Positions 42,896 to 56,600 of a stretch of DNA of 64,000 nt are shown piece after piece. Position 1 is the stretch's first letter; every line of letters begins with the position of its first letter. Source of the stretch: Candidatus Latescibacterota bacterium (GTDB taxonomy: Bacteria; Latescibacterota; UBA2968; UBA8231); contig OZ241362.1 in the NCBI GenBank assembly GCA_965200315.1, positions 1,856,001 through 1,920,000 of the forward strand, in the 5' to 3' direction. The translations under genes were made by a program, and so were the position numbers. The notes under the pieces were generated by a model. It was not told where the DNA came from, ran no database searches, and was given only the letters and a program-made list of their open reading frames with translations.

Positions 42896-44796
42896 GGCCG
42901 GTACCCGCCTCCCATCTCGCCCTGCCCCAGCGCGACCGCGGCCCACAACAGCCGCATTGCGATTTCGCCGCAAATCATTCCCAGGAAAAACGGCATGACC
43001 CGCCGATAGGTCTGTGCCCCGCCGTAGCGCACTGCCAGCCACTTGCACAACCAGCCGCACAACACCGCCCCCCACACCAGCCAGCCAAAACCCGTGCCAA
43101 ACACAAAGCCCATCGGATGCAAGGGCCAGCGGAGAAAGTGCTGGCGCATCAACGCCAAGAAATAGGTACAGCCCGCCCCAACCGCGTGAAATCCCAAGCG
43201 CACCCAGTCCGTGCCCCCAGCCACCGTGCCCGCGTCTTTGAACAAGTAGTTGTAGTAGCGGCCAATGCGCGCCTCAGACCGTGCGCCGCCCTGTTCCTGC
43301 AAGGCAAACAGCCCGTGCTCGTAGATCGTTTCCAATGAAAACACGTAGCCAGCCCCCAGCCCAACGGCCAACCCCAAAGCCATCCCCCAAATCAAGCGGC
43401 GCGGAGACACTCCGTGGATCTCGGCCAACTTCAGCCCCTCAAATTGCAGGGCGGGCCAGAGCCCAATCATCGTAAAGCCAAACACCGCCAAAAAACCAAA
43501 GCCCATGTAGGTCTCATCGGCAAAATGCCCAGCACCGGTTCCCAAGACCACGAAGAACAGGTAGCCCACAATCTGCGGCATCCCCACAATGGGCAACCCG
43601 CCGTCGATCCGCAGCCGCGCAAACGTCAACGCCAACAGCAACACCAGCACCAGCGCCGCAATGCCCATCAGCGGCGGTACCCCCAAAGCCGTAGTCCACG
43701 CCCACAGCACCAGCAGCCCGACCACCAGCCCCCACGTCGCCGGACTGCGCCAAGAGATCGCCGCCGCCAAGGCCCGCCGCGCCGACCACAGACTAAACAA
43801 CCCCAAAAAAAGCAAGCCGCCGCGCGCCTGCGTCATAAAAAAAGGAAAGTGACTGGGCCAATCTAGCCACGGCGATCCGTGCCCAGGGATGAAGTCGCCG
43901 CGATATTCCGAGCGCCCGAGGAAATGGGCCACCAGCAATTGTACGCGGGTGAGCAGATAGAAAAACCACGTGCTGAACGACACTTCCACGGGTGCCAGAA
44001 ACGCCGCGCCCACCAACAGGGGGACAAACTCAAAGTGGAACGGAGATTCAAAAGGGGCCATGGCTTTCCACGGATCGTCGAGGAGGAAATGCGCCATGTT
44101 CAAGCTCGTGGTGATCTCGGGCACTCGCGGCATGTAGTGGTGCCAGCCATTGATCCCCAACAGCACACCCGGCACCAACGCACCCCACCAAAACAGCCGC
44201 TGGCCAAACAGGTCTCCGGCAATGAGGGCGCGGGGTACTTCCAACAGCGGAAATCCCAAGCGCTCGGTCTCCAGCCAGCGCTGCCGCAAAAGCCACACCA
44301 AGCAAAAGCAGGTGAGAAAGAACGCGCCGAAAAACGCAGTCCACATGGCCAATGGCCACAGCCACGCCCCCCAAGGCACGGCCGCGCCACCTTCAAACGC
44401 CCCGATGGCCGGTGCCTCATTCGGGCCGCCCGGCACCAGCCAATCCGGGACGACTTTTAGGAAGCGATAATAGGGGCCGGTCGGTTGGGCAAAGCCTCCG
44501 TAGAAACCCGTCACTAAACCCGGCAGAAAGCGGTGCATCAGGCCAGAAGCAGTCGCCGACACCCCGATGACTAACGAGGCGTAAAGTACCGCGCGATCCC
44601 CCGGGCCGAGCAAGCGGCGCATTAAGGTAACGGCTGCCAAAGCCCCTATTGGCACGGCGAAAAAGACCTGCGCCCCCGGCATACTCCCGGCCCCGGCCAA
44701 ATACGGGCCGTTGTACAGCAACTCGACGCGCTGGAGCAACCACCCGCTCGCAACCGTAATGCCGACGATGAGCGCGGCTAAGCGCAGTGCGGCCAT
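42892..44796 (-). CDS. DUF6785/DUF6784-like multi-pass membrane protein
   Basis: PWGAWLWP, QRWLETERLGFPL, WPLHPMGF, FFLGMICGE. Confidence 0.7.
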   Translation of the reverse strand: MAALRLAALIVGITVASGWLLQRVELLYNGPYLAGAGSMPGAQVFFAVPIGALAAVTLMRRLLGPGDRAVLYASLVIGVSATASGLMHRFLPGLVTGFYGGFAQPTGPYYRFLKVVPDWLVPGGPNEAPAIGAFEGGAAVPWGAWLWPLAMWTAFFGAFFLTCFCLVWLLRQRWLETERLGFPLLEVPRALIAGDLFGQRLFWWGALVPGVLLGINGWHHYMPRVPEITTSLNMAHFLLDDPWKAMAPFESPFHFEFVPLLVGAAFLAPVEVSFSTWFFYLLTRVQLLVAHFLGRSEYRGDFIPGHGSPWLDWPSHFPFFMTQARGGLLFLGLFSLWSARRALAAAISWRSPATWGLVVGLLVLWAWTTALGVPPLMGIAALVLVLLLALTFARLRIDGGLPIVGMPQIVGYLFFVVLGTGAGHFADETYMGFGFLAVFGFTMIGLWPALQFEGLKLAEIHGVSPRRLIWGMALGLAVGLGAGYVFSLETIYEHGLFALQEQGGARSEARIGRYYNYLFKDAGTVAGGTDWVRLGFHAVGAGCTYFLALMRQHFLRWPLHPMGFVFGTGFGWLVWGAVLCGWLCKWLAVRYGGAQTYRRVMPFFLGMICGEIAMRLLWAAVALGQGEMGGGYRP

Positions 44797-44855
44797 CTCG
44801 TAAATCTTTCTACCATTCCTTGCGTTGTCCTAGTAGCCACTTTAGAGCATCTCAT

Positions 44856-46038
44856 ATTGACTTAGAGGGCTTGGTATTCTACCCATAAGAAACCACGCCA
44901 GAAAGCCTCACTAGGGCTTTAGGGCTGTCCTCAAGATCGGCTTACTTGACCTTTGCGAAAAGAGGCCATTGTGCATTGGGCGACCTAACTGATGCTGAGG
45001 GCAACGCGGTACGAGGGTGAATTCGCAGTACGCAAAATATCCCAAAAGTAGGAGAATCCCATGAGCGTGAAATCCGTTTATATGATGACCGATTTGGAAG
45101 GCGTGGCCGGTGTCGATGATTGGGACCCGAGGCACCGGGACGATGCGACAACGGCAAAAGGCGTGTACGACCGCGCCGAGATGCAGCGCTTGTTGACCGG
45201 AGAAGTCAATGCCGCGGCCGCAGGCTTATTGGCAGCAGGTGTCGAAGAAGTCATCATCAATGACGCGCATGGGGCCGGGCGCACGATTTTGTCCGAAGAA
45301 TTGATCTCAGGCGTAAAACTGGTCCAAGGCGTCGAGCGGCCGTGCTGGTTGCCGGGCTTATCGCCTAAATTTGACGCCTTGATCCAAGTGGGCATGCATG
45401 CAATGACCGGCACCCCCAACGGATGCCTCGCCCATTCGATGAGCCACAACATGGTCTATCGAGTCAATGATGTAGAAGTCGGCGAGATGGAAATGGCGGC
45501 GTATTTGTGTGGTCATCTAGGCATTCCTTGGGTCTTTACAGCGGGCGATCTGCACGCCTGTACCGAATCCGAGCGCTGGGTCCGCGGCATTGTCACAGCA
45601 CCTGTAAAAGAAGGGCTGGGAGAATTATGTGCCCTGCACATGGCACCAACAGACGCACGTGCCTTGATTAAGACGCGCGTACAAGAAGCCATCGCGGTCG
45701 CCAAAAACATCGAACCACTCGTTGCAAAACGTCCGGTGGTGATGGAGGTAATGCACCCCGACCCCAAGCGTCTTTCCGTGTCAGAAGGGGTTGAGCACGT
45801 AGATGACGTTACGATTCGCTGCAAAGGCACCTCCTTCTGGCAGGTGTTTCACAACATGGTCTATGGCCAGCCCGATTTTCCGGTTCCCGCGTAACAGACC
45901 GGGTGACGTTGGGTGCCAATTTCTTAATTTCGCTCGTACATGGCTCCGAGCATGGTGTTGTCCTCGGATGCCAGACCTTTGAGACTTTAGACTATCCCAA
46001 GAAGCTCTATCATTGACTTAGGGACTTGGTATTCTACC
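44856..46038. repeat. Imperfect 27-28-bp direct repeat flanking the M55 peptidase gene (44856-44883; 46012-46038)
   Basis: attgacttagagggcttggtattctacc vs attgacttagggacttggtattctacc. Confidence 0.8.
45061..45894 (+). CDS. M55 family D-aminopeptidase (DppA-like)
   Basis: TDLEGVAG, EVNAA, INDAHG, VGMHA, LAHS, AGD. Confidence 0.88.
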   Translation: MSVKSVYMMTDLEGVAGVDDWDPRHRDDATTAKGVYDRAEMQRLLTGEVNAAAAGLLAAGVEEVIINDAHGAGRTILSEELISGVKLVQGVERPCWLPGLSPKFDALIQVGMHAMTGTPNGCLAHSMSHNMVYRVNDVEVGEMEMAAYLCGHLGIPWVFTAGDLHACTESERWVRGIVTAPVKEGLGELCALHMAPTDARALIKTRVQEAIAVAKNIEPLVAKRPVVMEVMHPDPKRLSVSEGVEHVDDVTIRCKGTSFWQVFHNMVYGQPDFPVPA

Positions 46039-46131
46039 TTACATCAGACAAGGGAATCGAACAAATAATAAAGCGGCCTCATACTGATCTAAATTAAGAA
46101 TATTCTTCTTCCGAAGGGAGCGAAACACACC

Positions 46132-49100
46132 ATGAATCAAGACCTCGAAGCACTGATTGAAGAGCACGCCAAGATCATGGCCGACCAGATGGTGAAGGCC
46201 GCTGCATGGGCAGGATCGGAAGAAGACATTCGCCATGCCTGCAATACGCTTATCGACGAGTTCATCAAGAAAGCGGGGTTGACCGTCGAAGGTCGCCATG
46301 AATATGGCTTAGCGGGCGGGCGTATTGACTCGAAATACGGCGGCGTGGTCATCGAGTACAAAGATCCGAAGGGTGCCGGAAAAATTACAGAGGATAATAA
46401 CGCGCCGGGAGTCAAAGCCGTCGTCGAACAGCTCAAAAAGCGGTTCCGGGACTTTCAGGCAAAAGAGCACGTCGGTATGGAGCGTATCCTTGGCGTGGGC
46501 TGCGATAGGCGACACGATCATCTTTGTACGGAAGCGCGGGGCCAAGCTCGACGCCGAGGATCCGCAGCCGGTCACGCCGCATACGATCCAACGCCTGCTT
46601 CGAGTTATAGTCTCGCTAGGCGCACAAGGATGTTCCTTCACCCCTGAGAACCTAGCCGCCTATTTTGGTTCCGAAGGCCAGAGCGCACAAGGGGGTGTCC
46701 AGCGAATGTATGCCCTAATCCACGCAACCGATAGCCCCAAGGCTCAGACGTTTTTCCGCCAATGGCAGATTCTCTTTGGCGAAGTCTGTGGCTACGATAT
46801 TCATAGCCAAAGCCCCAAAATTGAGAAACTGGCCAAGCATTATTTTATATTCAACCCGGATCCAGCCGAACTCCTCTTCGCCGTCCACACGTATTATGCC
46901 CTATTAATGAAGATGCTGGCTGCTGAGATTGTTTCCTCCTTCTCGCCGTTGGGAACCTCAACTCTAAAGAAACTCGTTTCCGCGCCTACTTCGGCTAGCT
47001 TGAGGAGTGCATTGGAGAACCTCGAACAGGGCGGCATCTGGTCGCAACTCGGCATTCGCAACTTTCTCGAAGGCGATCTCTTCTCTTGGTATCTCGATGC
47101 TTGGAACGAAGATTGTGCGGACGCCGTCCGCACCATGACGCAGGCCCTCGACCAATTCGATCCGACCACTCTGAGCGTCGATCCCGCTGAGTCCCGTGAC
47201 TTGCTTAAGCAACTCTACCAACAACTCTTCCCCAAATCCGTCCGCCACGACCTTGGCGAATACTACACACCTGATTGGCTAGCCGAACTCGTGCTCGACG
47301 AACTCGGCTACGATGGCAACCCAGACAAGCGTTTGCTCGACCCTGCCTGTGGTTCGGGCACTTTTCTCATCATGGCACTGAATCGCGTCAAAACGTGGTA
47401 CGACGAACACCGCTACGAGTGCGGCTTTGGCGAAGACGAGCTTTTGCAGAAAATTTTGCGGAACATCATAGGCTTCGACCTAAATCCACTGGCCGTCATG
47501 GCGGCCCGCACCAACTACCTGATGGCCATCCGCGAGCTACGGCGTCATGCGGACAACATTGAATTACCCGTGTACCTGTGTGATTCGATCATGACGCCCT
47601 CAGAATACGGCGACGTTTTAATTGGAGGCTTGGGTAAGGTCCGGCAACTCAATACCAGTGCCGGTGATTTCAACATCCCTACGGAAGTCACGGAAAATCG
47701 CGAGTATATCGGCCGCTATGCTGATACGCTTGAGTTTTGCATCCGCAATGGGTACTCGCCCGAAGAGTTTCTCGACCGATGCAGGGCTGAAGCTCTCCCA
47801 GTGACAGAAGCCCTCCTCCATATAGCCCTCTATTCTTGTCTCCAGCAGCTCGACGCGGATAACAAAAACGGAGTCTGGGCGCGTATTATTAAAAATGCGT
47901 TCGCGCCTCTATTCATCGGCAAAGTGGACTATGTGGCTGGCAATCCGCCTTGGGTAAATTGGGAAAGTCTTCCTAGCGCCTATCGGGACGCCATGAAACC
48001 GCTCTGGCAGGAGTACAACCTTTTTACCCTGTCAGGAACGGCTGGTCGCTTAGGCGGAGGCAAGAAAGATATTTCCATGCTTTTCACATATACCTCAGTC
48101 GACAACTATCTGAAAAAGGACGGACGGCTCGGTTTTGTCATCACACAGAGTGTTTTCAAGACGCAGGGGGCGGGAGATGGTTTCAGACAACTCCGCTATA
48201 CGCAAGCTGAGACTAGCCAATCATGGTATCTAAAACCCCTTATGGTCCACGATCTGAGTGCCATACAGGTTTTTGAAGGTGCTACCAACCGCACTGCAGT
48301 CTTTATCTGCGAAAAGAAGAAGAAGCCCTTTCAGTATCCCGTGGAATATACAATATGGACCGGGGCGTCGCGTATTGCTCAAGATAAGACACTGGTAAAT
48401 GCCCATGCCGATACGACCCAACGCAGAATGGAAGCCATACCTATTATCGCTTCCAAAGGCTCATCCCCTTGGCTCACTGTGCCAAAGCAGGCACTTCCTG
48501 GCATTAAAAAAGTGATCGGAGTAAGCAATTACAAGGCACATGAAGGAGTGAACACGGGCGGCCTCAACGGATGTTTCTGGCTTCAAGTCTTAGAAAAGCG
48601 TCCGAATGGAGAGTTGGTAATCGAGAATCTGCACGACGTCGGTAAAATCGAGGTCAAACAGGTACAGGCCGTCATTGAGCCAGACCTTGTCTATCCTCTC
48701 CTGCGCGGTCAAGATGTCCACCGCTGGCAGGCCGATCCTTCGGCACACATTATTCTGGCCCAAGACCCTCAAACAAGAAAGGGTATTCCCGAGTCCGAAA
48801 TGAAGAGCCGCTGGCCGAAGACCTTCGCCTACTTAAAGCAGTTTGAAGGCGACCCCAATATATCCGAACGTGGTACGTTGCGGGGGAGGGCTACAAAAAC
48901 TGTACGCGGCCCTATTAAGAACGGTGCCCCTTTCTATTCTATGTTTGGAGTCGGATCTTACACAATGGCGGAATGGAAGGTTGTTTGGCCAGAAGTGGGG
49001 CACTCCGTCCGCGCAAGCGTGTCCGGCCCCTTAACAGTTAATAAGGTAAAACCCTCTTTGCCAGCTCATACAATCGTGGCTGTTTCTTGCAGTAGCGAAA

Positions 49101-49399
49101 GTGAGGCATATTTCATCGCCGGAATGCTCAATTCTTCACCTGCCTACGTAGCCGTTGCAGCTTATATTGTTCTACATCCATCTCCGCATATTATGAAGAA
49201 TATAGCTATCCCCCGGTTCAAAAAGGCAGATAACGACCATACACTACTAGCTGAACTCTCATACCAATGTCACGTTGCCACAAATAATGAGGGCCAACTT
49301 GCTGCATTAGAGGCTGATATTGACGAAGCAGCGGCCAAAATTTGGTGCATCACCGATACCGAACTGAAAGCAATCCAGAAAACCATGTCAGAGCTTTAG
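46132..49399 (+). CDS. Type IIG-like restriction endonuclease-methyltransferase fusion; +1 frameshift at about 46507
   Basis: GRIDSKYGGVVIEYK nuclease motif; LGEYYTPDW, LDPACGSGTF, VAGNPPW; removing A46507 gives GCDGDTIIF in one frame. Confidence 0.85.
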
Positions 49400-49424
49400 T
49401 AACTTCATCCGTAGAGGAGAACTC

Positions 49425-50014
49425 ATGGGTAATGACAGCAGCGATCCAATACTGTCTGAGCTAAAGACGGAAGCTGCCAAGCGAGCACGGAAGAGCTTTG
49501 AGCGTCAAGTTGAGGAACAGCAAAACAAAGAGCAGCAGATAGCCTTCAACATCCTAGTTTGGGGTATGGCACCCGACAGAGATGTGCCCATAGCCCAAAA
49601 ACGAAAAGACATTGGGAATCAGCTTATTGAAGACGGCCATAATGCTATGTTCAGCGAGGACCTAAGCCACCTCAAGATCCGGACCTTTCGGAAACGAGTA
49701 AGGAGTTTGCTCAGGCAAATGCTGCTGATTTCATTATCGTCCTTGTCGAAGGTTCGCCTAGTGCGCTGGCCGAAGTATGCGATTTCTGTGCTCGCCCAGC
49801 CTTGGCTACGAAGGTATATGTCATGGTGCCGGACGCCTACAAAACTAGCTATGTAGGCCAAGGGTCCCTGAAAGAATTGGACGAAGGATATGAGAGTGTT
49901 CATTGGTATCATCAAGGAGATGTCGAAGCCTGTAGCGTTTTGACCCAAGCCTGCAAGCGTGTAAGAGCACGGCGGAGCATGTCTTATCGTCCCCCACCAA
50001 GGAGGACGAACTGA
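49425..50014 (+). CDS. NDT-fold protein resembling retron Ec86/St85-type effectors; -1 frameshift at about 49674
   Basis: ILVWG...MFSEDL; adding one A continues KDPDLSETSKEFAQANAADFIIVLVEGSPSALAEVCDF...SYVGQGSLKEL to the stop overlapping the helicase ATG. Confidence 0.6.
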
Positions 50015-52972
50015 TGACTTACGAAGAAAAGATTGATTGGGAAGCAGCCTACGCGATGCAAGACAAGGAAACTATATTCCTCTTGTACACCGTGTCGGAG
50101 GGCCTCTGTCAGTATGTCAGCGACTTCTCTACGCATTTCAAGGGAGCGGTTGAAGAAAATGTTCAAAGGCTTATCACGGCTGGCTTTTTGGAGGAGTCCG
50201 ATGGACGCTTGGCCGTTACCGAAAGAGGACGTTTCGTATTGGGTGATTTTGCTAAAGCTGCCCAGAGAATAGAACTCAAAAACAAATCATGGGTGGTCAG
50301 CACAAGCCCTCTACACGCAGATAACGGCATCGGCGTAGTCCGGGAGATTCGTGGAGAACAAGTCAAGGTGGAGTTTCGTGCGAGAATTTTCTCAAAGCCT
50401 CCCTACTTGACCATATCCCGTACCCTCAATGCCAACGAACTTCGCGCAATCAAATCGCCGTCGGAACGGTTACAGGACGGCGAATTCGACGAACCGTGGT
50501 GTTTCGACCTGCGTACACGGGCAGCGGAATTGCTTATATACAACCGCGATGGACAATTAGGCGATGCGCGGACAGACTTGTTGCCGCATCAAATCAGCAT
50601 AGCACATAAGGTGGTTTCCAGCCCGCGGCGACGCTACTTGATCGCGGACGAAGTGGGGCTAGGCAAAACAGTCGAAGCCGGGATGATTCTCTATGCGTTG
50701 CGGCAGCGGGACCAGGCGCAACGGGTGTTGATCGTGCCGCCGGCGGGCCTGACGCTGCAATGGCAGGAAGAAATGGAGGACAAGTTCGGCCTGAAGTTCG
50801 CTGTGTACCGTGAGGATGTGGATGGACCACTAGCCTTTGACCAGATGAATTATCTGATTGCGTCGATGGATACGCTGAAGCTAGACCGTCCTCTGAAGGA
50901 TGGACGTCGTGAAGGTCATAAGACGCTATTACTTGGTTCCCGCGATTGGGATGTAGTTATATTCGACGAGGCGCATAAGCTCTCGGCGAAGACGTGGTCT
51001 CCGCAGAAGACAGATAGGACACAGAACTATCGTTTGGCGGAAGACCTAAAGGAACGCTGCCGAGCACTGATACTATTAACAGCGACGCCGCATCAGGGTG
51101 ATGAGTCAAAATTCCAAAATTTGGTATCTCTGTTACATCCCCACGTAACCTTCAAGGAATTTCTGATACGAGAGGATAAGAACAGATCAATACCCTTCAC
51201 AGACCTCATACTCCGAAACCGTAAGAGTAAAGTGACCGATGCAGAAGGCAACCTGATCTTCAAAGGCATGGATATTCATCCGGTACGCGTCGATCTTTTG
51301 GGCAACGGGGAAAAGCAGTTCCACGAGGCATTGGAATCCTACCTTCGAAAGGGCTATGGCTTCGCGGATCAAGACCCAAGCGACACGCAGCACAAAGCCA
51401 TTGGATTCGTCATGACGACATTCCAGAAATTGGCGGCGAGCAGTACACGGGCCATCAAGGACGCACTCAAAAAGCGCGTTGCGAACCTTCGGAATACTGC
51501 TAAAGAGAAGGAACCCGGAGACAAAACCGAATACGACACACGGTACGAAGGTGAATTCGAGGCACAGAAGACTGAACAATTTCGCCAAGTGTTCATTGAG
51601 AAGGAAGTTGAGATGCTGGAAGAGCTAATTGCTATGGACGTGCCCGGCGATGCCAAGCAGAACGAACTATCGGAGGTAATCGAGTCTGTAAGCAACGAAG
51701 ATTCAGACCAACTGGTGCTGGTATTTACAGAGTACTTGGCGACTCAAGACGTTCTCGTAGAATTCTTGGAGAGGGCTTATGGGGAAGGCTGCACCGCGAT
51801 AATTCGCGGTGGGATGTCGATGTGGAATAAAAAGAAAAGTATCGCTGAGTTCCGCGACAATCCGAAAGTACGTTTTCTAGTATCCACGGAAGCGGGTGGC
51901 GAAGGCATCAACCTCCAGTTCGCTCACGTGATGATTAACTATGACTTGCCCTGGAATCCATTCCGACTAGCTCAGCGGTACGGACGACTCTATCGCTACG
52001 GTCAGACTAAACGAGTGCAAGTCTTCAATTTCCAAAACGCGGGAACCATTGAGGATAAGGTTCGCAAGTATTCTGGAACAGAAGACACAGACCGCCGCCA
52101 CCCGGCTGTCAGACGTGACCGGAGAGTCTTCCAAAGAAATCGAAGAAGGATTGCTCGGTCTGTTCGACGAGCATCTAAATTATGAAAAAATTTATCGAGA
52201 GGGCTTGGCCAAGGGCAATATCAAGCCTTCGCAAGAGGAAATCGACAAAGCCGCCAAGAAGGCCGAAGAATCTTATAAGATCGCCTATGCTAGTCTGTTT
52301 AGCAAAGACATTGCCCCCTTCAATCCCGAACACTTTAAGCATGAAGTACAGAGTCCTCTCACTCTTGAAGACGTGAAAGCATTCGTCCTGAAGTTTGTCA
52401 ATCGAGAAGGTCGCAAAGTAATCGAATCCGACGACGGGACATTTGAGTTTCCCTTACCGGATAGCCTGAGCGAGGAAGAGGGGCTGGATCGACGCTACAA
52501 GAAGGTAACTTTCGGTAGAGCAACAGCCATCCGTAACTCTGAAGCAGAGTTTATGGCGATTGGGCACCCGTTCACGAACGCGGTACTAAAATATTGTGGA
52601 TCTGTTGACTTTGGTGGCTTAGCGTGTTCAAAAGTGGTCCGGCACTCATCATTGCCATCTGGCAATGGTACGCTCTTCAACTTCACTGTGAAGGTTTTAA
52701 AAGAGACCCAAGATGATGAGAGCATCTTCTTCAAATTCCTCCCTATATTTGTGTACGGTAATGGAACGGTTGGTTCAGAGGAGACTACGCAGGCAATCGT
52801 TTCGGCGTTAGCCGAGGCTAAGATGACGTCAAAAAAGGAAGCTTTGCCCCTTGAGGGTGCTGAGGCTCTATTCGAGAAAGCCAAAGACCAAGTGTTCACT
52901 CAATGCGCCCAGTACGATCCTTGGGATGATGATATATTCTGCCTGAATGCCCTTCGTGTCGAAGTGGTCTGA
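50014..52972 (+). CDS. SNF2-family helicase (RapA/DrmD-like) with N-terminal wHTH; +1 frameshift at about 52071
   Basis: LLPHQ, IADEVGLGKT, QWQEE, FDEAHK, LTATPHQG, VFTEY, STEAGGEGINLQ, NYDLPWNP, QRYGRLYRYGQ; C-terminal part continues in ORF 52049-52972. Confidence 0.88.
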
Positions 52973-53045
52973 CAACAATTGAGAATATTCCTCGAATCAA
53001 AAGTTTCAATGCCAAGTAGAACGCCAAACGACAAGCGTTTAGGGA

Positions 53046-53375
53046 ACGGCCTCCCAAGAAATCGGAATCCTCGCCCACGTCCGACGCACTGCTGCTCAAC
53101 GCGTACTTTTTTTTCCTCATGCAGTGCGCCAGATGGCACGACCAGACAGGACGATTGCGCCAAACGAGATTAGAACTGTTGTCATGCAAGGCGATCTAAT
53201 CGAGGATTACCCCGAGGACGCACGCGGCCATAGCTGCCTACTGCACGGCCAAGGAGTTGACCAACGAGACATCCACGTAGTCTGTGCGCCCAAAGAGGAT
53301 TTTCTCGCAGTAATCACAGCGCACCTTCCCACAGAGGATGAGTGGGAGCAAGACTTACGGACAAGGAGGTCATAA
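53046..53375 (+). CDS. DUF4258-family toxin-like protein; start codon appears to be ACG (possibly mutated)
   Basis: FFPHAVRQM...IEDYPEDARGHSCLL...IHVVCAP...VITAH.P...W. Confidence 0.7.
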   Translation, partial: TASQEIGILAHVRRTAAQRVLFFPHAVRQMARPDRTIAPNEIRTVVMQGDLIEDYPEDARGHSCLLHGQGVDQRDIHVVCAPKEDFLAVITAHLPTEDEWEQDLRTRRS

Positions 53376-53587
53376 TGAACTGCATCCACTGTCATGGGCA
53401 GATGAAGCGCTCAAAGGCCCCCTTCCACATTGACCGCCATGGCTATCACTTGGTGTTCGACACAGTTCCGGCGTGGGTCTGTGACCAATGCGGTGAGGCG
53501 TACTTTGAGGGGCGCGAGGTCAATGCAATTCAGAGTGCCATTAAGGGGCTTGACCAACAGGCCCAGCAGCTTGTTGCGGACGCTTGA
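53375..53587 (+). CDS. YgiT-type zinc-finger protein (MqsA-like N-terminal domain)
   Basis: MNCIHC...VPAWVCDQCGEAYF; AGGAGG RBS; coupled to DUF4258. Confidence 0.85.
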   Translation: MNCIHCHGQMKRSKAPFHIDRHGYHLVFDTVPAWVCDQCGEAYFEGREVNAIQSAIKGLDQQAQQLVADA

Positions 53588-53626
53588 GAGACTCATCAAG
53601 CCGCGTCAGGGTGACGAATCGAGATG

Positions 53627-56600
53627 TCATCCCCGCTCCCACTGCGGCAACTGCTCGGCATAGTAGCGGCGGCTGTCTGCGTCCAAGGTGCGCCAGATCA
53701 AAAACTGCTTGCGCACATCGTCCAAAAAGGTGCGCACCACCCGCTGCCAAGTCGCCAGATCGCCCGCCGCCAACGCCAAGTCAACGTGAATGTCGCAATA
53801 GTTCGGGTCCGGCCCCGGCTCTATCTCCATCGCGGTCTCTTGCACCACGCCTTGGTCAAACGGCGCCAACCACACCCGCGCCGCCACGCGCACCTGCTCC
53901 CCCACCTGCTCTACCTGCAGGGCTTCGACGTAAAATCCCGCCCCAATCGATTGCTCCTGATTAGCCGCCCACGATTCTGCTTGAAACGCCGCCATGCCGA
54001 GCGCTTCGCGCCGCGCCAGCGAGAAGGGCAGTTGTATGTGCAAATGCTCGCCTTTGACGACCGGCAGCTTCCAGCGCCGTTCAATCCCCGGCGTACAGAT
54101 CCGCCCGGCCATGCGTGCCGGATAGAGCGCCGACGCCACCACTAACAGCGCAATCGCACCAACGGTGAGCACGGCTCCTAGCGACGAGTAATTCAACTCC
54201 AAGCCGGGCAAAAAACCCCCTTGGGCCAAAAGCTGCGCCGCACCTTGCCCTAGCAAATAGCCAGCGACCGTACCGACCACACCCAAAGCCACCGCTTCCG
54301 CCATGAACAGCCCGCTCACGTGCCCGGGGGCTAAGCCGACCGCGTTAAAGGTGCCGATTTCTTGCGTCCGCTCGTACACCGCCCCAAGCATGGTGTTGAA
54401 CACGATCAACCCGGCAATAAGCAGCGGCACAATAAGCGACCCCCATCCCGACACCGACGCCACCCCCACCGAATTGACGAGCAAGCGCTGCCCGCCAAGG
54501 CCGGCGAACAGATTCAAGTCCAACGTCTCCGCCAGCTCTACCAGCGCACTGCGAGTCTCTTCAACGGTCCCAGCCAACCGGATTCCCACCGACGCCAGCC
54601 GCACCCCTTCCCACCGCATCAGCGCGGCAAACGGCAAAACCGGCGTGGCCGACGCGGGCAAATGGGCAAAGGGCCGCAACTTCCCCCCCTGTTCACGTCC
54701 TACTTCCGCTTCCGACGGCTGTTGCGCCTCTGGATCCAATGGGGTCAGGGGCTCGCCATTCAAATCGAGCCGGTCCAGCGCGTCGTCTGCGAGCAATCCA
54801 ACGACCCGAAACACCTCCCCAAAAACCCGCACCCGCTCCTGCCCCAAGCCCTCGGCACTGACCCCCAAAGAATCCGCCAACCCCACCGGCAACAGACAGG
54901 CGTCCTCCTCCCCGGGCCGCAACCACCGCCCGGCGATCACCTCCGGCCCGAGCAAATTCTCTTCCTGCGCCGCTAGCCCAACAAAGCCCCAAACCCCGGC
55001 CCCTCGCTCCTCCGCGTCATCCCGCTCGACTCGGTAGGACGACGCCAGCAATTTTACCGACAGCCACGCCCGCGGCGCGACCTGCTCGTCGCCAAACCAA
55101 TCGCGCAACAGATAGTAGCCCTCCATCTCCATAGCCTGCCAGCCCGGCATCCGCACCAACGCACCCTCGTACGCTGCGTCCGCGCCAATCGGAATCCAAT
55201 TGGTGTGTAGCGTAGCGCGGACCGAGGTGAAGGACAGCACGGAAAAGGTCAACAGCACCAGCGTCGCGCAAGTCAGCCCGGTGCGCCAAGGCCGCCGCCG
55301 CAAATGCGCCAACCCCACGGCGACCGACGTCAGCACCGCACCTGATCTCTGCATTGCGATCTGTCCGCGCCGATTGCCCAACGCCTGCAACTCCCGGTTC
55401 AACCGCGACATCCCCAAAAACGTGACCAAAATCCCCAGCACCAAGATGACGAAGCCGAGCAAGATGATCGCCGGCGATATCGACAACTCAAAGGCCGGAT
55501 GCACGTAGCGCAAGGCGACAAAGCCCACGAGAAAGAGCGCGAAATACCCGAATACCTGCCGCCGCAAATCGGCAAACCCAAACGCCAACCGCTCGGCAAA
55601 GTGGGCAAAGGGAATCAGCACGGCCAACAAAAAGAGCGCACCCTGCACCACTCCAGCTTGCGTCCGCTCCACGTCCCGATAGGCCGCTGCTGCTAGTGCC
55701 CAAGCGCGCCGCGCCCGATCGAAAAAATCCCGGTGCCGATGCTCGGCACGCCCTACCTCGGCTTCTGCCAGCAGCCCGGCCGACCGCTCGTGAAAAGCCG
55801 CCAGCCGCCCATTGCGCACGCCGTGGCTCTCTAGTCGGTCAATCCGCTCGCTATTGAGCACGTGCATATCGGCCGCCACCCGATACACCGTCTCCTCGAC
55901 GCGCCTCTTCCCATCAACCGCATAGCCCACCCCGCTCGGGGCGTCCTCCGTCCCATTGAGCAACAGCAGGCGTCGCCCCAATCCATAGCGGCCCGTCGCC
56001 ATCACCGCCTTGAACCGCTCACTAGGCCGAGTAAAAATCACAGCGACCGGCACCGTCCACGACCCCACCCGATTCACATAGCTGAACAACTCCATCTCCG
56101 GCGCCGTTAGCGGCAGGCAAGCCCCGTACACCACCGGCTCGGCTTCCAGCTCTGCGTCAATGACTTGCACCCGCTCCAAGGTCAACAAGTTGCGCGGATC
56201 AAAAATCCCAAACAGCGTCGTCCCCCGCAGCGGTGCGGTGACAATTTGCACCTCGTCCTCGGCACTATCCATCGTCACCGTCAGTGCCCGTCCCGGCAAC
56301 TTGCGCTCCCCATTGATCCCCCAGTCCGGCGCATCCGTCACCGCCCCAGTCTCCGCATCGAGCCGATACGCCTCCAACCGCACTGGCTTCGTGTAGATGA
56401 TACCCGATTCAACCCCGGGAATGGCAAACCGCCCCGAATCATCCGCCGCGGCCCAAAAATCTGGCCGCACCCCAGCCAACGTCGGCTGGCGCAACCGCAC
56501 CCGTACCAACGCCCCAGCCGTAGGCTGATCCGGCAGATAGCTGCGCGGCCCGTAGTGGACCACCTCCCCGCGAATGGTGCCAAACGCATCGTTGCCCCAA

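Follow-up and report, generated by a model that had tools for sequence, protein, structure and literature searches.

The window analysed here is a stretch of 64,000 nucleotides from the genome of a Candidatus Latescibacterota bacterium (GCA_965200315.1, contig OZ241362.1, positions 1,856,001 to 1,920,000). It carries at 46.1-53.6 kb an island with ~50% G+C against ~63% in the flanks, whose limits were set by comparison with genomes of the same genus. The island contains a type IIG restriction-methylase gene, a gene resembling nucleoside deoxyribosyltransferases (NDT-like gene; 49425..50014, plus strand), a helicase gene of the SNF2 family (50014..52972, plus strand), and a pair of small genes coding for a DUF4258 protein and a zinc-finger protein. 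We concentrate on the NDT-like gene and on residues 1 to ~85 of the helicase (50014..50268, plus strand), which are predicted to form a winged helix-turn-helix (wHTH). The original prediction read these two neighbors as a retron effector that had been split, with its DNA-binding domain fused to an SNF2 ATPase. We found that the NDT-like gene and a following gene that opens with this wHTH form a conserved two-gene module. The first gene is homologous to the catalytic part of retron effectors, and the second shows no sequence or profile likeness to their C-terminal part beyond that of two winged helices.

The NDT-like gene codes for a homologue of the catalytic N-terminal domain of retron type II-A effectors (RcaT/STM3845), and of this domain only. 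In the window the gene is broken by a frameshift (frame switch located at 49673), while its intact homologues have 197-198 amino acids (aa); 65 such proteins were found in a search confined to 63-202 aa. The C-terminal piece of the window copy matches NCBIfam NF038232 (E 6e-9) and PADLOC NDT_II-A (E 7e-8). Both profiles also match the intact members tested, five of five in each case, NF038232 with E-values from 4e-4 to 6e-9 and scores of 20-36 bits that stay under the cut-off of 100, since only the N-domain aligns: the matches always fall at positions ~11-166 of profiles that are 272-279 positions long. The precomputed Pfam family PF28093, named STM3845, is present on 47 of the 65 homologues. 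A profile built from 60 NDT-like sequences was compared by hhalign with six retron effectors, namely the Ec86 effector from E. coli BL21(DE3) and five further effectors of the St85 family from plasmids, which also served as the comparison set below, and gave 95.3% (E 2e-8).

The structural model points in the same direction. For the AlphaFold2 (AF2) model of the NDT-like protein (pLDDT 78.8), the three best Foldseek matches are the chains 7xjg_J, 8qbl_E and 8qbk_E of the Retron-Eco1 (Ec86) effector, with E-values from 1e-6 to 7e-5, and the same effector takes the first three places in VIA (Z 13.3, 12.5 and 12.4, the next entry being at 11.3). Residues 38-188 of the model align onto residues 27-192 of the effector only (144-146 residues in VIA), and therefore the protein ends where the wHTH of the effector would begin. 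The catalytic glutamate E106 of Ec86 corresponds by hhalign to E118, which is kept in all 60 sequences of the alignment; E78 (E65 in Ec86) is kept in 59, and S112 (S100) in 49, the other 11 having alanine. The roles of these three Ec86 residues are taken from excerpts of a preprint (bioRxiv 10.1101/2023.08.16.553469).

Despite this homology, the island is not a retron, since the genome (5.36 Mb, 94.7% complete) has no match to RVT_1 (PF00078) at E<=1e-3, in a search whose controls gave matches for 3 of 14 genomes. The island itself has no open reading frame (ORF) of the size expected for a reverse transcriptase (RT), and the only Rfam match in 44000-55000 (E<=1) is to a snoRNA and due to chance, the coverage of retron noncoding RNAs in Rfam being limited.

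The helicase does open with a winged helix straight after the NDT-like gene, as had been proposed: the TGA stop codon of the latter shares one base with the ATG of the former. The ORF 50014..52185 starts ...ETIFLLYTVSEGLCQYVSDFSTHFKGAVEENVQRLITAGFLEESDGRLAVTERGRFVLGDF, and the core of the wHTH lies at residues ~18-68. Residues 38-75 match the winged-helix family HemN_C of Pfam with 26.2 bits, over a cut-off of 24 (E 8e-6). In the AF2 model, built on six orthologues, helices at residues 18-28, 35-41 and 46-55 are followed by strands at 59-62 and 65-68, which make the beta hairpin of the wing (59-68), and by a last helix at 70-91, with pLDDT values of 81-90 in the core. The closest structures are winged helices of the MarR family (Z 10.4 to 8.9 in VIA, 77-90 residues aligned), and the types ranked first by Foldseek and VIA are MotA, HxlR, MarR, LysR, DtxR and PadR. 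Judged from the Pfam match, the model and its structural matches, residues 1 to ~85 are a genuine wHTH. It belongs to a tightly conserved family, the copies in five metagenome-assembled genomes from other lineages being 55-65% identical to that of the window. The remainder of the protein is a helicase similar to BrxHI (339 bits) and DrmD (267 bits) in PADLOC, and it reaches 303 bits with the NCBIfam DrmD model (NF038317), under the cut-off of 610. Short forms of the helicase (P0040-P0044, 897-902 aa) lack residues 1 to ~90.

The NDT-like gene and the wHTH are strictly paired. Among 80 loci with relatives of the helicase, the wHTH was found in five, the same five that have an NDT-like gene upstream, and the other 75 have neither. 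At two short-form loci the methylase gene is followed by the helicase gene directly (L011) or after a gene for a PIN protein (L010), with no NDT-like gene and no wHTH. Starting from the NDT-like gene leads to the same result: the next ORF opens with the wHTH in six of six divergent metagenome loci (38-53% identity), and the wHTH lies downstream of the NDT-like gene in three of three loci of the same genus. Together with the window and the five helicase loci, the pairing holds wherever the NDT-like gene is usable, in 15 of 15 loci, and in 12 of them the start of the wHTH gene overlaps the NDT stop by 1-14 nucleotides. Whereas retron II-A effectors hold NDT domain and wHTH in a single polypeptide, the wHTH of the module is always on the second ORF. 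We therefore refer to the second gene as wHTH-X, where X is the body that follows the winged helix.

This body varies. It is an SNF2 helicase in six loci, a type I HsdR in one (L096), a protein of 353-360 aa from an unknown family in three, a protein of 1567 aa with NAD_binding_4, AMP-binding, PP-binding and acyltransferase domains in one (L093) and a protein of 1299 aa with a weak HAD match in one (L091), while three bodies are cut by contig ends. The proposed fusion to an SNF2 ATPase should be widened to a fusion with many bodies: the wHTH is not specific to such a partner and stands on several unrelated proteins. In L096 (2-8161) the genes are arranged as hsdM, a gene for an unknown protein of 442 aa, hsdS, the NDT-like gene, the gene for wHTH-HsdR (1209 aa) and a gene for a YgjP-like metallopeptidase. 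The large protein of L093 (1138-5841) combines the wHTH with a fatty-acyl reductase domain (NAD_binding_4) and with AMP-binding, phosphopantetheine and acyltransferase domains. Further proteins with the wHTH were also seen: P0045 (435 aa) has the same wHTH (63-70% identical) fused to an FRG and TPR protein that matches the PADLOC candidate PDC-S15, and P0046-P0049 and P0051-P0053 are short proteins in which degenerate helicase-like sequence follows the wHTH, looking like decayed copies. P0050 carries the wHTH on an unknown protein of 360 aa, whose C-terminal part gave no usable match in an atlas search.

The module occupies a variable chromosomal site, which is a hotspot of integration or variation. 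Four loci (L105 in genome G142, L106 in G140, L107 in G123 and L005 in G145) share the site with positions 44.8-53.6 kb of the window and differ in their versions of the island. The site is bounded by a gene of 277 aa and a membrane protein gene of 634 aa on one side and by a permease-like gene of 1468-1565 aa on the other. The versions comprise the NDT-like gene with a wHTH-355aa gene only, a broken methylase gene with a broken NDT-like gene and a wHTH-360aa gene, and an intact form with three genes. In G142 and G140 the NDT-wHTH pair stands alone, with no methylase and no helicase, and L005 is a syntenic relative of the window with the same flanking genes and all three genes intact. In L107 (4368-8460) the methylase and NDT-like genes are both broken, the first into parts of 703 and 420 aa, the second into two pieces with a TGA, indicating that inactivation of the module recurs.

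Retron effectors are the natural reference for the function of this pair. The Ec86 effector is described in the available part of a preprint as a toxin kept inactive in complex with the RT and the multicopy single-stranded DNA (msDNA) of the retron (bioRxiv 10.1101/2023.08.16.553469), and for Sen2 the excerpts of another attribute the sequestration of RcaT to a contact between RcaT and msDNA (bioRxiv 10.64898/2026.10.13.758329). We suggest that the module joins an enzyme of the RcaT family, reduced to its N-domain, with a wHTH-X partner in which the wHTH serves as a regulatory handle, and we give this explanation, the best among those considered, a probability of about 50%. The first gene provides the 197-aa NDT-like enzyme and the second, usually starting on the stop codon of the first, the wHTH and its variable body. 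The enzyme would be an N-glycosidase toxin directed at NAD+ or nucleotides, as in Retron-Eco1 and Retron-Sen2; the Eco1 effector reportedly hydrolyses NAD+, for which the support at hand consists of PDB titles and mentions of an NAD+ site. Through the wHTH, the downstream protein would hold or regulate the enzyme in place of the binding by retron msDNA. If the partner were disturbed during phage attack, as when a restriction motor is stalled or inhibited, a second-line abortive response could be released. We infer from this a physical binding between both proteins, toxicity and a role in defence, which would make the module a retron-free abortive-infection unit, as well as a common descent of the wHTH with that of retron effectors.

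The last of these points goes back to the original prediction, which is partly supported. The gene order, the stop of the NDT-like ORF at the domain boundary of the effector and the co-occurrence of both genes agree with a split effector. The rearrangement also has a precedent: Mestre et al. 2020 (PMC7736814) describe type II-A2 retrons in which the C-terminal wHTH is detached from the effector and joined to the RT that follows. In those retrons the wHTH thus ended up on the RT, and here on an SNF2 helicase, HsdR or another body; the likeness is taken from the published description. Sequence and profile comparisons, on the other hand, give no support to a homology of the two winged helices. 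That the Ec86 effector has a wHTH at its end is stated in the legend of Fig. S6 of a preprint (bioRxiv 10.1101/2023.08.16.553469), and most of the C-terminal letters that had suggested the likeness are present in it, although matching them needs four insertions or deletions. In these comparisons the likeness does not go beyond the generic fold.

Several results weigh against our explanation, most of them coming from this comparison. BLASTP found no alignment between the wHTH region of the helicase and the Ec86 effector. Smith-Waterman scores of the wHTH against the C-terminal parts of the six retron effectors range from z -0.7 to +1.0 relative to shuffled sequences, with none of the six significant. 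The match of helix 3 and wing that had been intended comes out as the best local alignment, with a score equal to the shuffle mean. With hhalign the wHTH reaches 0.3% (profile of 6 sequences) and 0.2% (profile of 44 sequences) against the same retron alignment that detects the NDT half at 95%. The sequence-profile search of the PDB with the wHTH returned no retron effector at E<=10, only noise such as Syncytin-2 (E 0.11) and ribosomal S19e (E ~2), and PADLOC NDT_II-A matched none of ten wHTH modules at E<=10. The weak PADLOC matches of these modules are instead to the winged-helix (WH) protein of type III-A retrons, to CARF-associated wHTHs, JetA and MkoB; the III-A match has E 0.004-0.015 for the window module in two scans and appears for 2 of 10 modules in the ten-module scan. 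Retron effector chains are absent among the top 50 Foldseek rows and the top 50 VIA entries for the wHTH model, an absence that does not measure how dissimilar they are. When 1.84 billion representatives were searched with a profile, 37 remote relatives of the wHTH came up, located on HsdR, a sigma-54 activator, ECF-sigma-like proteins, a response regulator, a kinase and tandem-wHTH proteins, and no NDT domain was detected in the 32 that were scanned; JGI metagenome contigs and viral contigs scanned with the wHTH alignment gave no relative. By sequence and profile, the wHTH is thus no closer to retron effectors than to generic wHTHs. Other points concern the module itself. One genome, G056, has an NDT remnant (49 residues matched) with no wHTH nearby and is the sole exception to the pairing. 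No locus has NDT, wHTH and helicase in one ORF, nor was an ORF joining NDT and wHTH seen in this subfamily; a search with the 90-aa wHTH for longer proteins found 35, none of which has an NDT domain by precomputed Pfam, and the search from the NDT side covered proteins of 63-202 aa. The divergence of the NDT-like protein and the wHTH is correlated (r 0.87, 36 pairs), which is not independent evidence because adjacent genes are inherited together anyway. Finally, the 1567-aa body of L093 does not fit a DNA-centred role or a guard of a restriction motor.

These negative comparisons are what would be expected if an unrelated wHTH of the MarR or HemN_C type had been recruited independently as functional partner of the NDT-like enzyme, the similarity to the retron layout being a convergence. 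We consider this a serious alternative with a considerable, if smaller, chance of being correct. Effectors that target nucleotides often pair with winged helices, as the phosphoribosyltransferase and WH protein of type III-A retrons do, and HemN_C and the latter protein are among the best weak matches of our wHTH, whose remote relatives are spread over many unrelated proteins. Recruitment explains less easily why the NDT-like ORF stops exactly at the domain boundary of the effector and the wHTH begins on its stop codon, and the published II-A2 retrons illustrate that such a fission happens. The missing signal is also weak evidence: the C-terminal domains of retron effectors are poorly conserved even among themselves, and for this reason common descent is not disproved by the negative tests. 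It is less probable, and in our opinion unlikely, that the wHTH simply binds DNA, either serving the downstream protein or repressing the operon as the N-domains of antitoxins do, with no contact to the NDT-like enzyme, so that both would travel together just as parts of one moving cassette. The MarR-like fold (Z 10.4), the presence of relatives at the N-termini of regulators and the action of several bodies (SNF2 helicase, HsdR) on DNA would suit this role. Nevertheless, all 15 loci keep the pairing, with bodies that have nothing else in common and include enzymes unrelated to DNA (L093), and the short forms show that helicases of this family can do without a wHTH.

The NDT-like enzyme could also be no toxin at all but a deoxyribonucleotide or DNA N-glycosidase, similar to DNPH1 or to glycosylases, that helps restriction against modified phage DNA or nucleotides and is placed on DNA by the wHTH. 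DNPH1, nucleoside 2'-deoxyribosyltransferases and CMP N-glycosidase appear indeed among the structural matches (Z 8.7-9.7), and restriction-modification genes accompany the pair in the window and in L005-L009, L096 and L094. We regard this helper as improbable, given that in sequence as in structure the enzyme is nearest to the retron effectors, with DNPH1 and NDT far behind, and that the pair is also found alone or with bodies unrelated to restriction.

The regulated toxin that we prefer has counterparts among known systems and differs from them. With RcaT of Ec86 (Retron-Eco1) and St85 (Retron-Sen2) it shares the catalytic domain, including the equivalents of E106, E65 and S100, and the order in the DNA, NDT and then winged helix. 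It differs in that no RT was found in the genome and no msr-msd match in the Rfam scan of the island, and in that the NDT-like protein lacks the C-terminal wHTH of RcaT, the wHTH of the next protein having no specific similarity to that of the effector. The helicase core is best matched by the models of DISARM DrmD and BREX BrxHI and BrxHII, but the island has no PglZ, BrxC, DrmA or DrmB, and the helicase is constantly accompanied by a type IIG restriction-methylase; within the DrmD/BrxHI family the N-terminal wHTH is an add-on, missing in the short forms. Compared with MarR, HemN_C and the WH protein of III-A retrons, which have a similar fold (Z 8.9-10.4) or weak profile matches (HemN_C with 26 bits), the wHTH of the module represents a distinct and tightly conserved family adjoining the NDT-like gene. 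In the type I restriction locus EcoprrI, the gene of the abortive-infection effector PrrC, an anticodon nuclease, separates hsdS from hsdR, and the restriction complex keeps the effector inactive. The NDT-like gene of L096, located between hsdS and the wHTH-HsdR gene, recalls this arrangement, but the enzyme family is different and we take it as an analogy only. Full-text searches for NDT with SNF2 and restriction-modification, PF28093, DrHyd with retron and RcaT outside retrons returned nothing relevant, so we found no description of the NDT/wHTH-X module in this literature.

In the window itself the module is inactivated. Three genes carry exactly one frameshift each. In the type IIG restriction-modification gene that precedes the module (46132..49399, plus strand) it is a +1 shift located in 46508-46629, in the NDT-like gene it lies near 49673, and in the helicase gene it is a +1 shift near 52065, the frame switch being placed at 52058-52071 by tblastn of P0002; intact relatives of the helicase have 975-1000 aa. 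Contigs from runs X8 and X9, which belong to a different study, and from X2 match positions 49400-52178 with no differences or gaps. This stretch spans the frameshifts of the NDT-like and helicase genes, the methylase site lying outside it, and because the independent contigs are identical across both sites, assembly errors are ruled out there and these two frameshifts are real mutations. In addition, each of the runs X8, X9 and X11 has loose ends at 52149, and the sequence found there is the same 20 letters as 46096..46115 (plus strand) of the window, which is joined directly to 52149 in some reads and contigs. We therefore conclude that a variant with a deletion of ~6.0 kb coexists with the full form, the deletion extending from the methylase gene across the NDT-like gene into the helicase gene, most of which is gone. 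The depth of the variant in these three runs is 8-9, whereas the full form has 17-23, which puts the variant at about one third of the depth. With all three genes frameshifted and deleted in part of the population, the island of this organism is a decaying copy.

When both frames are read, the methylase has the nuclease, N6-adenine methylase and specificity parts of a single-polypeptide type IIG enzyme. It matches nearly the whole PADLOC model REase_MTase_IIG (980 bits, positions 118-1098 of 1100, the N-terminal piece covering 13-120) and the Pfam families N6_Mtase and Eco57I, with an N-terminal nuclease preceding the N6-adenine methylase. Intact copies of 1083-1139 aa are present in L005, L008, L009, L010 and L011. 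At the right edge of the island (53124..53587, plus strand), the genes for the DUF4258 protein (53124-53375) and for the MqsA-like zinc-finger protein (53342-53587) overlap each other. The DUF4258 match is clear (62.5 bits in Pfam), whereas those to MqsA_antitoxin and Mut7-C are weak (E 0.003); the two genes are likely a toxin-antitoxin pair. In L005 there is no ORF of at least 110 aa between the helicase and the permease, a size above that of the two ORFs of the window pair (83 and 81 aa).

For the window, then, the message is the more modest one of a decaying island, and the wider meaning lies in the family. It is tempting to go further and see here a retron-independent family of two-gene abortive-infection systems, with an RcaT-type NADase or N-glycosidase docked via a winged helix on interchangeable sensors or motors (SNF2 helicases of type IIG systems, type I HsdR and others) that replace RT-msDNA as guard, and retron II-A effectors, II-A2 retrons and our module all derived by fission and fusion from a single ancestral NDT-wHTH unit; we put this forward as a tentative and rather doubtful extension. 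RcaT effectors are currently understood as toxins restrained by the binding of retron msDNA. If our reading is true, the module would be a case of the RcaT enzyme family working without any retron, and the transfer of the winged-helix half onto other proteins, restriction motor subunits among them, would amount to a natural experiment on the control of such toxins. Restriction-modification would, moreover, be connected with a toxin-based second line of response. Related genomes carry intact copies of this compact, modular unit (L005, L105 and L106, for example), so that these ideas are directly testable.

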